Below are positions 1 through 6,879 of a stretch of 64,000 nt of DNA, in pieces. Every line of letters starts with the position of its first letter. The first letter of the stretch is position 1. Where the stretch lies: IMG/VR virus record IMGVR_UViG_3300045957_000047, positions 10,199-74,198 of that record. The stretch is one strand, 5' to 3'. The notes under the pieces were generated by a model, which was not told where the DNA came from, made no database searches, and saw nothing but the letters and a program-made list of their open reading frames with translations. The position numbers and the translations under genes were made by a program. This stretch comes from a virus.

Positions 1-96
1 ACCCTAGTGTTTTCAGGAGTGATTCTGATGGGGTTAGGCATTGTTAACTACTCGGAAGGGGTTTTTAGTCGCGACAAGAGACAACGAAAACAATGA
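1..96 (+). CDS. 3' end of a small membrane protein (partial)
   Basis: Open frame TLVFSGVILMGLGIVNYSEGVFSRDKRQRKQ*, hydrophobic stretch, stop overlaps the next ATG (ATGA). Confidence 0.6.
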   Translation, partial: TLVFSGVILMGLGIVNYSEGVFSRDKRQRKQ

Positions 97-530
97 AAAT
101 AATCAATAAATTGAAAAAACTATTCACAAAAAAGAAGAAGTTCCAGGTACAGGAACACTCGCAGCACTGGGTCATTGTCTTCACTAATCAAGATGAACTT
201 GCGTACTACCTTCAAGGCATCCAGACACGCTTTAGACAGGGAGGTAAGTTGCTACTCAACGTTGCGACTAAACAAATCCGGATGAACTTATGGGACAGTG
301 CCGATTATGTAGTCACACTGACGACTGAAAGCAGTAACAAGCGGTTCGAAGGGCATGAACTGACCGGCGTTGTCCTCAGATGTGCCGTCGGTCAAGAGTA
401 TTACGGGCACCTGGCGAGCAAAGTAAGGGTACCGAGTGAACTCAGCTACAGTGAGTTTTGTCAGGTCGCATCAATCGGTCAACAGATGATCAACGGGTTG
501 GAAATTAACATTGAGGAGAAGGAATTATGA
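93..530 (+). CDS. hypothetical protein, resembles a fragment of a terminase ATPase domain
   Basis: 145 aa, ATGA-coupled on both sides; pattern ...KRFEGHELTGVVL...YYGHLASKVR. Confidence 0.75.
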   Translation: MKIINKLKKLFTKKKKFQVQEHSQHWVIVFTNQDELAYYLQGIQTRFRQGGKLLLNVATKQIRMNLWDSADYVVTLTTESSNKRFEGHELTGVVLRCAVGQEYYGHLASKVRVPSELSYSEFCQVASIGQQMINGLEINIEEKEL

Positions 531-757
531 ACATTCTGGAGAAAGTAAAGGCTATCCAAGAACAATTGGACGAACATTTGGACATTGTCCGCCAGGTCAA
601 TGAGGAGAACAATAACTGGAAACCGGATTGGGAAAACACCCCAAACAGCAAAACGTTTTTAAGTTTGAACAACAGCACAGAAGAAGTAACTTTCAGGACT
701 TATTTCCATTGCCAAGCATTCCCTAAAGTTCTTGACTACTTTGTAGAAACCGTTTAA
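527..757 (+). CDS. hypothetical phage protein (WKPDW motif), possibly C-terminally truncated
   Basis: GAGGAGAAGGA RBS, ATGA overlap; the last codons overlap a predicted promoter. Confidence 0.7.
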   Translation: MNILEKVKAIQEQLDEHLDIVRQVNEENNNWKPDWENTPNSKTFLSLNNSTEEVTFRTYFHCQAFPKVLDYFVETV

Positions 758-760
758 TTT
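732..760 (+). promoter_or_regulatory. putative sigma70-type promoter
   Basis: TTGACT (732-737), 17 nt spacer, TAATTT (755-760), just upstream of the structured non-coding element. Confidence 0.45.
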
Positions 761-772
761 ATTAAGTCACAA

Positions 773-925
773 GCAGTGCAACGCTGCAGGGTTTTAGCAG
801 ACCCGACAAGAAACAGGTACAGTCAGTTTGTCAGTGAGAGTTTAGGGAGGGGGAACCCTGCCGTCTTCTTATTCTGCTTTCTTGTACGGTCTGCTAACCC
901 TAGGCTTTCACTGACAAACCGATTG
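773..925 (+). ncRNA. putative structured RNA or 5' leader with long crossing helices
   Basis: 786-793 pairs with 854-861; 794-816 pairs with 874-897; 820-847 pairs with 898-925 (23 WC, 4 GU, 1 mismatch). Confidence 0.55.
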
Positions 926-934
926 AGATAAGCG

Positions 935-1222
935 ATGAAACAATTCCCCAATCCGTTAATGGTCGCGTACCTTACCAAGACCAGTGCTACTAACAAGAAA
1001 GTACAGGTTCGCATGTTTGTCCAGAGCCTGTACAAAGGCAGACCTGCTACCTATACCCACCGTATTGATCATGCACTAAAGCTGCCTAGAAACGAGTGGC
1101 CCCGACTGCCTGAGCATACGTTGATGCGCCACGGTTTAGCACATCACAAGCAAAAGATTCACTTAGGATGTGGGAAATACATCACCGAGGTAACCGCACA
1201 AGACGTGAGTGCCGTGACATGA
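935..1222 (+). CDS. hypothetical basic, His-rich protein
   Basis: 95 aa ORF, ATGA-coupled to the next gene. Confidence 0.7.
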   Translation: MKQFPNPLMVAYLTKTSATNKKVQVRMFVQSLYKGRPATYTHRIDHALKLPRNEWPRLPEHTLMRHGLAHHKQKIHLGCGKYITEVTAQDVSAVT

Positions 1223-1392
1223 CTGACCAGGACATACTGGATCAGTTCATCAAGATCCTGGAAGAGGCCTGTGAAACAGATGAGCCTTGTCACACGCTTG
1301 AACTGGGATACAGCAGCTTCATCGACGACTATTTCGACACGCAAGTACTGGTTAACGGATTGCGTCAACTGATAGAGAGGGTAGGTTTCTGA
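1219..1392 (+). CDS. small acidic hypothetical protein
   Basis: MTDQDILDQF...; ATGA overlap upstream and TGATG overlap with the polymerase. Confidence 0.65.
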   Translation: MTDQDILDQFIKILEEACETDEPCHTLELGYSSFIDDYFDTQVLVNGLRQLIERVGF

Positions 1393-3353
1393 TGAAAAAA
1401 GAACTCTATTCTTTTGATTTGGAGACCTTTTTAATTCACACAGATTACCCGGAACCGTATGGGTACCAGGGGCTGTCACCTATCCCAGTGTGCATGTCTC
1501 ACTTGAGTTCAAAGGATTATAGGCCTCAGGTTATAGAAACGTTCTATGACAAGAAGCTCATTACAGACATTCTTATCAAGAAGCTTGAAGACGACAATGT
1601 TCTCTTTGCAAACCAATACATAGCGTTTGATTTCCTGGTTTCTGTCCGCCACCTGGATGTACCTATCGAACTGGTGTTTGCAAAGTATGACAAGGGATTG
1701 GTCCGAGATACTGCGGTGCGGGAAAGGCTCTTAACGCTGGCTAATGGAGACGCAGTAAAGAACCCTGGTATACGCTATGGTCTGGCGAATCTTGTACAGA
1801 AGTATCTGGACAAGGACATATCGTCTTCAAAGAAAGGTCCTGATGCTTGGCGATTAAAATACTCAGAACTGTACGGAGTACCCTTAAAACAATGGCCACA
1901 GGAAGCCATAGATTACCCTTTGGATGATGTCTCTCATGTCTTTCAGGTGATGGCTAAGCAACATAGAATGCGGCATCTGTTTGAGGCAAATGAGAAGGAG
2001 CAGACCCGTGCCGAGTTTGACTTGATTTTGTTGGCTGAGAAGTGTCCGAGGGTAGACCCCAAAGCAGTCCAAGCTCTTGAGGATCAACATAAGGAAAATG
2101 TAGAGAGAGCCCGACAGCCGTTCATCGACGCAAAGATGATGAAGTGGAATAAGAACAGGTACACCAAGTTTCCGAAAGGGGATAGTCGCAGAGAAGGCTG
2201 GACTATGGATACCAAGAAACTGCAGAAGGCTATTGACAAGGACTATGCGAAGCAGGGTCGAGTGGTCCCTACAACAGAGGCTGGCTGCATTAAGAAAGAT
2301 GCTGAGACCTTGTTGGGCTGCAAGAACAAAGCGCTACGTCAGTATGGGGAGACGGCAGGTGCTATAAAAGTGCTGGACGGTTTCTTGCCGGGTATGAAAA
2401 CGGCACTCGACAGGCCAACCCAGAGGATCACAACGCAGTACACAACTATCCTGGTGACGGGCAGAACCTCGTCTCGTAAAGTCAACCTGCAGAACGTTGG
2501 CAAGGCTCCCGGTGCCCGTGAGTGCTTTATGGCAGAGGATGGCCATGTCATTGTATCGATAGACTATGAGGCGCTAGAGATGTTCACCCTGGCGCAGGCT
2601 GCTTATACGTGGCACGGAGCTACAGCACTCCTCAATGCTCTGAACGAAGGATTAGACGCTCACCTGTTGATCGTCGAGACGATTACCGGACGGGCCTATG
2701 AGGAGCTGAATGATGCTAAGAAAGCAGGGGACAAAGAGGTGCTGTCTTATCGAGCGTTGGCGAAGGTGTTTAACTTTGGAGCAGGGGCGTTCTGTGGACC
2801 GGATACTCTGATCGGTAATATGAACACAGAACAACAGGAGACCCTACAGGGCTTGGAGCCCGATAGTGACCTACAGCAAATTGTTAGACGCATACTCAAC
2901 CAGTGGACAGATAAGTGGGAGTTAAGACCTTTTTTAAGCTATTCCCAGAAAGCCTGTAGTAACGGCAGACGGCCCAGCTACACATGCCCCATCACAGGCA
3001 GAACCAAGGCGCTCAATACCTTTTGTGGCCTCAATAACCTACGCTTTCAGGGACTAGGGGCTGATGCCATGAAGGAAGGTCTGGCACGGGTGCAGAGAGA
3101 TGCTCATATTCCAGGGCGTACCCTGCACAGGCACGGGGTGATACCTATGATCGAAGTTCACGATGAGATTATATTCAGTGGACCTGTGGAGGGTCTGGAG
3201 GAGTGGGTGAAGCGAGCTCAGTATCTGATGGAGTCAGGAGCTGAAAGAATGTTACCCGACTGTAGTATGAGAACCGAAGCAGGGGTGTGTGGAACCCATT
3301 GGAGTAAAGAGGATGTCCCTGTCAGCGTGTATTTAGAGAGCCTGGAGAGTTGA
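1392..3353 (+). CDS. polA: DNA polymerase family A with 3'-5' exonuclease
   Basis: ExoI SFDLET, ExoII YIAFDF, ExoIII YPLDD; TGRTSS; motif A DYEALE; motif B RALAKVFNFG; motif C VHDEI. Confidence 0.95.
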   Translation: MKKELYSFDLETFLIHTDYPEPYGYQGLSPIPVCMSHLSSKDYRPQVIETFYDKKLITDILIKKLEDDNVLFANQYIAFDFLVSVRHLDVPIELVFAKYDKGLVRDTAVRERLLTLANGDAVKNPGIRYGLANLVQKYLDKDISSSKKGPDAWRLKYSELYGVPLKQWPQEAIDYPLDDVSHVFQVMAKQHRMRHLFEANEKEQTRAEFDLILLAEKCPRVDPKAVQALEDQHKENVERARQPFIDAKMMKWNKNRYTKFPKGDSRREGWTMDTKKLQKAIDKDYAKQGRVVPTTEAGCIKKDAETLLGCKNKALRQYGETAGAIKVLDGFLPGMKTALDRPTQRITTQYTTILVTGRTSSRKVNLQNVGKAPGARECFMAEDGHVIVSIDYEALEMFTLAQAAYTWHGATALLNALNEGLDAHLLIVETITGRAYEELNDAKKAGDKEVLSYRALAKVFNFGAGAFCGPDTLIGNMNTEQQETLQGLEPDSDLQQIVRRILNQWTDKWELRPFLSYSQKACSNGRRPSYTCPITGRTKALNTFCGLNNLRFQGLGADAMKEGLARVQRDAHIPGRTLHRHGVIPMIEVHDEIIFSGPVEGLEEWVKRAQYLMESGAERMLPDCSMRTEAGVCGTHWSKEDVPVSVYLESLES

Positions 3354-3354
3354 G

Positions 3355-3606
3355 ATGAAAAACAATAACCCGCTGATTCCAGAGGAGCCTCTCAAGGCAA
3401 AGCACATGGAGGATTTTGTTTCGGATGCCTTATACGAATGGTGACTGAGACAAAAGAAACCTTTCTTTGTGCAAGGTGACAGGATACATGTGGAGGTCAC
3501 AGAGGATCAAATGTTTAGAGTGACCTCTTTATTGAAGGCCATGATCCATCAGAATGCTAATGTTATTGAATCTAAGCTGAACGCTAAACAACCGTTGGAG
3601 AATTAA
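3355..3606 (+). pseudogene. paralog of 5087-5314 interrupted by an in-frame TGA at 3442-3444
   Basis: MKNNNPL...SDALYEW*LRQKKPFFVQG..VEVTEDQ aligns with MNSNPL...DEAFYEWYMKQDKPMYVDGVEVTPED; the frame fills the gap exactly. Confidence 0.75.
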
Positions 3607-3610
3607 AATT

Positions 3611-4075
3611 ATGAATGAAGACTTGTACCACCACTACGCCGATGAAACTAACTACTGCCAAGAATGTGGGGAGGAGATGCCAGGGTCATGGTCAAGGCTC
3701 CTGTGTGAGGATTGTGATCCCCTTCCGACAGTCCTCCTAATTTTCCCTACTGAAGAGCTGCTTCGGCAAGCACGTCAACCTCTGCTAGCAAATATAGAAA
3801 GCTACTTAGGAGAACCGTGTAGTGTCGTTAGCACTCATCGAATTTTGACGAAGAGGTTTCAGCTACTACTAAAGTCGGGATTGAATGAGCGAAGTTACAA
3901 AGGATTGGTGTTTGAAGCCTTTGTATTTTGGGAGTCTCTTCATTCTTTTAATAGTGATAAGGTTAGACGGTTGTGGGATTACTTATGTCTGTCTAAAAGG
4001 AGGACCACTACTATAGAGGCTAGCAGGGTAGTTGCGGAGGCTGGCAGGGTAGTTGCGGAGTCTCTAACAGAGTAA
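3611..4075 (+). CDS. hypothetical protein: N-terminal CxxC..CxxC zinc ribbon plus a terminase-ATPase-like fragment
   Basis: CQEC...CEDC; VLLIFPTEELLRQA...LKSGLNERSYKGLVFEAFVFWE; GGAG RBS. Confidence 0.75.
   Translation: MNEDLYHHYADETNYCQECGEEMPGSWSRLLCEDCDPLPTVLLIFPTEELLRQARQPLLANIESYLGEPCSVVSTHRILTKRFQLLLKSGLNERSYKGLVFEAFVFWESLHSFNSDKVRRLWDYLCLSKRRTTTIEASRVVAEAGRVVAESLTE
4016..4060 (+). repeat. 21-bp tandem duplication within a CDS
   Basis: gaggct(a/g)gcagggtagttgcg x2, encoding EASRVVA EAGRVVA. Confidence 0.85.
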
Positions 4076-6667: not shown

Positions 6668-6879
6668 AAGTAAAACGCAGAATGCCCAGGTGGGAGTATC
6701 TTAGTGTTGATGAAAAGAGGGCTTGGCGTTCCATGGGTGTACTTAAAGAAGAGTACAACGGGTGTAGGAGAAAACTAACGTTTGCTAATGCCTATCAAGC
6801 AAGAAAGTTCGACAGAGGCAAAGTTCCTTATCGATGTCTCTATTGTGGGCATACTCATTTGGCAACAAGAAAGGCATGA
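6664..6879 (+). CDS. small zinc-finger-like phage protein
   Basis: CRRK...YRCLYCGHTHLAT. Confidence 0.7.
   Translation: MKVKRRMPRWEYLSVDEKRAWRSMGVLKEEYNGCRRKLTFANAYQARKFDRGKVPYRCLYCGHTHLATRKA

Follow-up and report, generated by a model that had tools for sequence, protein, structure and literature searches.

The c4 RNA of phages P1 and P7 and the CI RNA of the satellite P4 are immunity factors of temperate elements. C4 is released by processing as a discrete RNA of about 77 nt, and in P1 the enzyme involved is RNase P. The layout of the system can be taken from the annotation of the P1 record: two sites, a1 and b1, lie upstream of c4 and two more, a2 and b2, downstream of it over the start of icd; in the RNA itself the P3 loop serves as b' and the junction CUGUCAA as a'. 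The upstream sites belong to the a1b1 motif, a pair of hairpins of which the second holds a1 and is closely followed on its 3' side by b1, as the motif is described in the supplement to Weinberg 2010 (PMC2864571), where competition with a2/b2 is put forward only as a proposed role of a1/b1 in P1. Two other systems come close. In P4, CI acts with seqA and seqC in the antisense-RNA control of replication genes, according to the summary in PMC4825925. IsrK/STnc1160 of the Gifsy-1 prophage is a leader RNA with alternative structures, whose long isoform is the target of a small RNA encoded at that locus; acting in trans, this small RNA alters how accessible the ribosome-binding site of the first ORF is (PMC4825925).

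We have found what is probably another member of this group in an uncultured sediment phage with a genome of 74 kb. Its stretch 773-925 is best read as a compact and divergent antisense-RNA cassette of the P1/P7 c4 type (P4 CI-like), located on the plus strand at the head of a replication operon and working by feedback between leader and RNA, a reading to which we give a probability of about 0.72. The source genome is an IMG/VR record of 74,198 bp with terminal repeats of 106 bp; the window is the 64-kb stretch analysed as a whole, and coordinates refer to it unless the genome is named (Table 1).

Table 1. Features of the element and of the genes around it (window coordinates).
Feature	Position	Strand	Description	Basis
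Promoter-like hexamers	732-760	+	TTGACT, 17-nt spacer, TAATTT; overlap end of ORF 527-757	
Gap of 177 nt	between ORF 527-757 and ORF 935-1222		holds stretch 773-925; neighbouring genes all +	
Leader hairpin 1	773-787	+	6-bp stem, CAA loop	MFE folds, R1 alignment
Leader hairpin 2	789-804	+	GGG...CCC stem, presents a1-like heptamer	MFE folds, R1 alignment
a1-like heptamer TTAGCAG	794-800	+	complementary to a' junction 891-897	
b1-like target	806-816	+	complementary to 3' part of P3 loop, 874-885	
P1 5' strand	820-847	+	helix B 5' arm	Rfam C4 alignment, R2 match, pair counts
P2 hairpin	848-859	+	AGGG/CCCU stem, GGAA (GNRA) tetraloop at 852-855	cmscan alignment
P3 hairpin	860-890	+	stem 860-864/886-890; 21-nt pyrimidine-rich loop 865-885 carries b'	
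a' junction	891-897	+	CUGCUAA, 7 nt, single-stranded in C4 fold, before AACCC	
P1 3' strand	898-925	+	helix B 3' arm	
ORF 935-1222	935-1222	+	95 aa, first ORF downstream of element, orphan	
ORF 1168-1392	1168-1392		74 aa, between ORF 935-1222 and polA	
polA	1392-3353	+	family A DNA polymerase, 653 aa	Pfam PF00476 2.4e-21, PHROG 17

The region 773-925 is non-coding by codon usage, and the ORF that spans it (776-931) was rejected as coding with negative scores in all frames. The next ORF, 935-1222, scores best in frame 0 (+0.08 vs -0.80 and -0.25) and on this measure plausibly codes for a protein, for which we found no Pfam or PHROG family and no homologue. The first recognisable gene of the replication operon is polA, followed by an exonuclease, an SNF2 helicase and a primase-helicase. 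No compositional anomaly was found, and no intrinsic terminator either after the element or between the neighbouring same-strand genes. The promoter-like site, with 8 of 12 consensus matches, was not reported by the consensus scan; it is placed like the P1c4 promoter of phage P1, just upstream of the a1b1 hairpins. What a previous reading of the sequence alone (the sequence-only reading) had proposed, a non-coding plus strand RNA heading the operon that leads into polA, is supported, and the distance it gave between the end of the 3' arm of helix B and the ATG at 935, 9 nt, is correct. Among the about 65 phage proteins scanned with Pfam there were an SU10-type portal, collagen-like proteins and an M15 peptidase, and no integrase or repressor family that would indicate lysogeny. 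The search for runs containing the sequence returned only the likely source sediment metagenome, with no RNA run among them. The Logan assembly of that run is the same as 500-1500 without any difference or variant, and an artefact specific to IMG/VR, one of the conditions under which the pattern was to be discarded, is thus unlikely.

The early region of this genome contains other structured elements. Upstream of the window, at genome positions 1171-1260 and 2327-2414 (L142), there are two similar intergenic leader elements of ca. 85 nt, each with a long interrupted hairpin and a CAACAA-rich tract followed by the next start codon; they have no Rfam match and are not C4-like. At window 4013-4060, inside ORF 3611-4075, a short GCAGGGTAGTTGCGGAGGCTG-like tandem repeat is found in coding sequence.

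The non-coding stretch had first attracted attention by three complementarities, called A, B and C, whose arms follow each other in the order C-A-B-C'-A'-B' rather than nested. A repeat finder and a count by hand returned A and B with the coordinates and pairs originally claimed. Helix B (820-847/898-925) has 28 positions, 23 of them Watson-Crick, four G-U (822/923, 838/907, 841/904 and 842/903) and one an A-C mismatch (825/920). Helix A has a core at 794-813/878-897 that extends past a one-base bulge (C877) to 814-816/874-876; it has 21 Watson-Crick pairs in all, interrupted at 804-805/886-887 by a 2x2 loop. Both are well beyond chance. In 2000 dinucleotide-preserving shuffles of 773-925 none reached the score of B (23.5, shuffle maximum 17.5), and none had a crossing helix with the score of A (15.0, shuffle maximum 11.5). 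Helix C (786-793/854-861) consists of eight perfect pairs, a level (a score of at least 8) attained by a crossing helix in 13% of the shuffles and therefore not significant. Most of its 5' arm coincides with that of the leader hairpin at 789-804, and its 3' arm, if paired, would destroy P2. We treat helix C as incidental. The order of the arms and helices A and B hence stand, and C as a designed third helix does not.

The G-U pairs of helix B had been taken as a sign of selection on a plus strand RNA, which fits the better fold of this strand (-66.3 kcal/mol, z -4.46, vs -54.4 kcal/mol, z -2.56, for the minus strand). Helix A is entirely Watson-Crick, without any G-U, and hence carries no strand information. 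This last point, together with the position directly upstream of the replication module, is what could favour a feature of the DNA itself, either interleaved inverted repeats serving as a protein-binding or origin-like site or the scar of a duplication or inversion. However, the four G-U pairs of B become A-C mismatches on the other strand, which folds 12 kcal/mol worse, the covariance models described below (R1 and R2) match the plus strand only, and the compensatory changes with respect to other C4 RNAs keep the RNA fold and not the sequence. We consider a DNA-level origin very improbable.

Judged by sequence and predicted fold, 820-925 is an antisense RNA of the C4 type (P1/P7 c4, Rfam RF01695), in which helix B makes up P1, the outer stem. 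The Rfam scan, which covered 500-1300 and all families, had a single meaningful match, C4 aligned to 831-915 of the plus strand with 29.3 bits, below the curated gathering threshold of 45 bits, and an E-value of 0.0022 over the 800 nt and all families. When the phage genome was searched with RF01695, the element was the only match (E 4.7e-5, one family searched). Another covariance model, R2, was derived from the cores of 18 canonical C4 RNAs of IMG/VR; it also had one match only in the 64-kb window, at 820-919 on the plus strand (44.8 bits, E 4.8e-9), and gave 55.8 bits for P1's own c4; the modules behind R2, and behind the leader model R1 used below, were selected for sharing the a'/a1 letters of the element, and their scores are partly ascertainment and their E-values rough. 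The element keeps 26 of the 27 R2 consensus pairs, 13 of them via changes on both sides with respect to the commonest pair, in an alignment fitted to the model. In the alignment of the C4 family pairing holds in 97.7% of the cells, and 23 of the 27 pairs covary, with both partners changed. The homologue of this particular variant that had been sought was not found.

The details of the fold point in the same direction. P1 encloses P2 and P3 and the 7-nt junction comes before its 3' strand, as in C4. P2 has a stable GNRA loop, like that of P1/P7 c4; in the data of Weinberg 2010 (PMC2864571) as given there for P2, 374 of 492 unique sequences have GNRA, UNCG or CUUG loops. P3 is closed by G860-U890; in the alignment 24 of 24 C4 RNAs close this hairpin with a G-U, and P1/P7 c4 does likewise. 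As in P1/P7, b' is located in the P3 loop and a' in a 7-nt junction before the conserved AACCC. The a' heptamer is identical to that of the 18 canonical IMG/VR modules, and so is the whole of GGUCUGCUAACCC at 887-899 to the corresponding stretch of the 18 canonical C4 RNAs. Other traits set the element apart. The outer stem has 28 bp vs ca. 17 in canonical C4 and the P3 loop here has 21 nt, the Rfam score is below the cut-off, the Rfam leader family is unmatched, and the CCACC-like 3' end that canonical members have is absent next to P1. The last pair of P1, C820-G925, touches a weak SD-like GAGA (925-928).

A stem as long as this could have a simpler role. Helix B might be a processing hairpin for RNase III that punctuates an early polycistronic RNA, as in T7-like phages, the leader complementarity having no antisense function. 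A nearly perfect dsRNA helix of 28 bp is long enough for the enzyme, the neighbouring genes all share one strand and are not separated by terminators, and there are other structured leaders in the early region of the genome. However, this would leave unexplained helix A (0 of 2000 shuffles), the three-way C4 fold with its 26 of 27 pairs, the junction motif, the a1 heptamer and the two-hairpin leader. Besides, RNase III cutting of an extended P1 is compatible with the C4 explanation and so is no true alternative to it. As an explanation of the whole element the hairpin is improbable.

The second half of the C4 reading concerns the leader, 773-816, which from its layout and complementarities is an a1b1-type leader, helix A being a1/b1 facing b'/a'. 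We draw this equivalence because the P1 annotation and the description of the a1b1 motif place the sites in this way: here too two hairpins adjoin, the second has a1 in its loop, and b1 comes immediately after it on the 3' side, the two sites being complementary to a' and b' respectively. The spacing between a1 and b1 is 5 nt vs 7 nt in P1 and 6 nt in L145. The layout of 773-816 recurs in the leaders of the 18 canonical modules, some of which have an almost identical a1 hairpin, and the second hairpin is nearly identical in form to those of L077, L079 and L104. R1, a covariance model from the 18 canonical a1b1 leaders, found in the 64-kb window a single match, 773-816 on the plus strand with both hairpins aligned (13.3 bits, E 0.027, with the same ascertainment as R2). 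The Rfam family c4-a1b1 (RF03163; clan CL00128, together with RF01695) did not match the leader at E-values up to 10, its sole match in the genome being elsewhere with 10.3 bits. R1 also matched weakly ahead of polA in L118, L128 and L131, but we discarded these matches; that of L118 overlaps the end of a coding region, and the alignment of L128 is identical to that of L118.

The a1-like heptamer TTAGCAG has a single plus strand copy in the whole 74-kb genome, that of the leader. A scan of IMG/VR with a 14-mer around a' gave 115 occurrences, 20 of which (15 distinct) fold as canonical C4. All 20 copies have TTAGCAG upstream, at -113 to -159, and 18 of them also downstream, at +32 to +37; it was found near none of the ca. 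95 chance matches of the 14-mer. The element's own copy lies 93 nt before the motif (-93). Leader and RNA interior form a duplex of 22 bp and -29.2 kcal/mol, vs 18-22 bp and -18 to -29 in the canonical modules, and helix A can be considered typical of the C4 family because both length and energy match. Also like in P1/P7 c4, the complementarity covers about 20 bp and has an internal loop over the 3' arm of P3. One departure is distance: the leader abuts the RNA here (3 nt), against a separation of 66 nt in P1 and of ca. 20-90 nt among the IMG/VR modules.

That the arms cross is what had suggested a knotted RNA. Neither this nor any new class of element is supported. Phage P1 and 18 of 18 canonical modules have their arms in the sequence seen here: a1 and b1, the 5' strand of P1, b' and a', and the 3' strand of P1. 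It is normal for the family because the pairing there is that of antisense and target or an alternative fold. The idea of a pseudoknot or knot in which A and B, or C as well, are formed at once has this order as its sole support. In an H-type pseudoknot the loops would have 3 nt (817-819) to cross the 28-bp stem and 0 nt (897/898) to cross the 21-bp stem, which standard pseudoknot geometry would not allow, and constrained folds give A and B as alternatives; the antisense pairing explains the order in every canonical C4 module, and C is at chance level. Co-formation is, then, extremely improbable.

The earlier argument that A and B could not fully co-form was well founded. We take them as alternatives because stems of 21 and 28 bp have linkers of only 3 and 0 nt. 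Constrained folding gave -60.9 kcal/mol with A enforced and -65.5 kcal/mol with B enforced, within 5 kcal/mol of each other, and in prefix folding of the growing transcript A was the best fold until about nt 915. In these models A and B are plausibly two mutually exclusive states. The bistable switch proposed before survives to this extent; it would belong to a kind of cassette that is already known and not to a new class. Something similar applies to the proposal of intermolecular pairing, which comes near the known mode of the family, a processed antisense RNA acting on the targets of other transcripts; it too would describe a known kind of cassette.

In the P1 immI operon c4 represses icd/ant. 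Here there is no a2/b2 over a ribosome-binding site, there are no icd/ant genes, and the next genes are an orphan ORF and then polA. No a2/b2 target was detected in the 74-kb genome by scans for exact runs, duplex energy, bipartite sites or all start regions, all of which gave background values. The downstream duplex energy, -13.6, is at background vs -15 to -34 in the canonical modules, and no ribosome-binding site stands out as a target in the start-region scan. The classical action of C4, blocking of the ribosome-binding site, which is the best understood mode, is therefore missing in this locus. Some shorter complementarities were seen in passing. The 9-nt complement of the P3 loop ACAAGAAAG is found at window 6865-6873, directly before the ATG (6876) of a small gene, and again at 993-1001 inside ORF 935-1222; neither match exceeds what chance gives genome-wide. 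At genome 1102-1127 (L142), inside ORF 792-1172, TACAAGAAA is complementary to the P3 loop of the C4-type RNA and is followed 6 nt later by CGGTCTGCTTT, which has the sense of RNA positions 887-895; roughly estimated, chance alone would place two 9-mers this near to each other ca. 0.2 times.

A leader that acts purely in cis, as a folding timer or sensor with two states that resembles C4 and has neither released RNA nor action in trans, would fit the genome without an a2/b2 target and the absence of the canonical CCACC-like 3' end next to P1. The small energy difference between the A and B folds and the precedence of A during transcription would also agree with it. Against this, the family match is specific and the canonical modules combine the same leader complementarity with a processed, trans-acting RNA, so that we regard a cis-only leader as unlikely.

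The architecture as a whole resembles the P1/P7 c4 locus, with promoter-like site, two leader hairpins, b1 and P1 enclosing P2/P3 following in this order. P4 CI can also be compared. According to the summary in PMC4825925, this small RNA originates in the untranslated part at the head of an operon whose expression it governs and which includes replication genes, and it can pair with a site (seqA) that precedes it in the transcript. Our element would resemble it in these points, and an upstream site is present. P4, a temperate satellite with seqB in CI, has in addition the downstream site seqC, and premature transcription termination is established in it; in our phage no such site was found, no intrinsic terminator follows the element and no lysogeny genes were detected. 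With IsrK (isrK, RF01394) the element shares a leader with alternative structures, here predicted, and a trans-acting small RNA of the same locus, here proposed. IsrK has in addition a terminator at its end and activates an antiterminator gene, neither of which is seen in this locus. The a1b1 region of P1 also scores against isrK, for which there was no match up to E 10 in 500-1300. C4 RNAs can be repeated within a locus: there are four in L030, one IMG/VR locus, and two in L145, and some of these copies have a different a' (e.g., UGCAAAC in L145:8800-8892), each copy having presumably its own specificity.

We searched the DNA of relatives (viral, metagenome and genome contigs) for a homologue of this cassette variant and found none. 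Megablast of 1-3500 against phage records gave nothing and tblastn with polA only matches below 30% identity; polA scans of viral and metagenome contigs gave relatives of 25-35% only, and three related viral records had no C4. In the scan of genome contigs one relative of polA appeared, 50% identical, in an Acidimicrobiales MAG contig (L149, JAHDCC010000044.1). Upstream of its polA there are dense small ORFs and no C4 or leader match. Because this relative is without the element, the cassette looks lineage-specific. At 60-1400 the same contig has three paralogues in tandem (44-49% identical) of the phage protein from genome 7984-8676, and may hint at the host or be a binning artefact. PolA proteins 46-56% identical over the aligned part came from Logan/ENA only. 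Three of these relatives (P0004, P0007 and P0009, 927 aa, 50-56% identical over the aligned part) are ca. 275 aa longer and carry the intein-splicing domain PF14890, which the 653-aa protein of this phage does not have. The pattern scan for the compact form retrieved only canonical modules and one unrelated repeat, L146:290-470 (IMGVR_UViG_3300002916_000001), at the start of a 75.5-kb viral contig. It consists of three tandem units of ca. 37 nt, each beginning with ATGTCTGCTAA(CCC), with the complementary TTAGCAGACAT ca. 50 nt upstream. The repeat has the a'/a1 letters of this C4 class and no C4 fold, and the contig has no protein similarity to this phage.

The way in which the C4-type cassette would work can be sketched from the logic of the family, adapted to this layout. 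The nascent leader would pair with b'/a' before the 3' strand of P1 is made (A state). In that state there would be no C4 fold, and 898-925 and the start region of ORF 935 would be left open. The B state would be reached by refolding, or by an already released C4 RNA capturing the nascent leader in trans; capture of the leaders of other transcripts would meet no topological constraint. In the B state the C4 fold would form, the 28-bp helix would abut the weak ribosome-binding site and the RNA would be excised, probably by RNase III or RNase P, the long helix being a plausible substrate of the former. The cassette would in this manner act back on the transcript that carries it and determine how strongly or when ORF 935 and polA are expressed, an outcome that we liken to the limitation of the P4 replication genes by CI RNA.

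One specific form of this mechanism, which we regard as doubtful, is that of a self-contained C4 cassette with no mRNA target, acting as a feedback timer in an apparently virulent phage. Early in the infection nascent transcripts would be trapped in the A state, and ORF 935 and polA would be translated. The C4 RNA released would later capture the a1/b1 leaders in trans and force the B state, which would yield more C4 RNA plus a message either cleaved or with the ribosome-binding site occluded. If true, the replication operon would shut itself off without a protein repressor. In a less likely variant the RNA would be aimed at the a2/b2 of resident prophages sharing its a' heptamer.

The locus is a variant of the C4/CI antisense theme that is compact, has a long P1 and an upstream target only, and stands before a replication operon in a phage with no lysogeny genes detected. 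A false lead has been removed, since the crossing helices are not a knotted RNA. Divergent C4 members that keep the fold are missed by the Rfam thresholds. C4/CI-type cassettes reach beyond the temperate phages of proteobacteria, in this case to the head of a DNA-replication operon in a genome with no detectable lysogeny genes. The compact form devoid of a2/b2 leaves the upstream a1/b1 sites on their own, which are what is least understood in the classical system, and a cassette with a1/b1 only is a natural test case for the pairing of leader and C4 alone.
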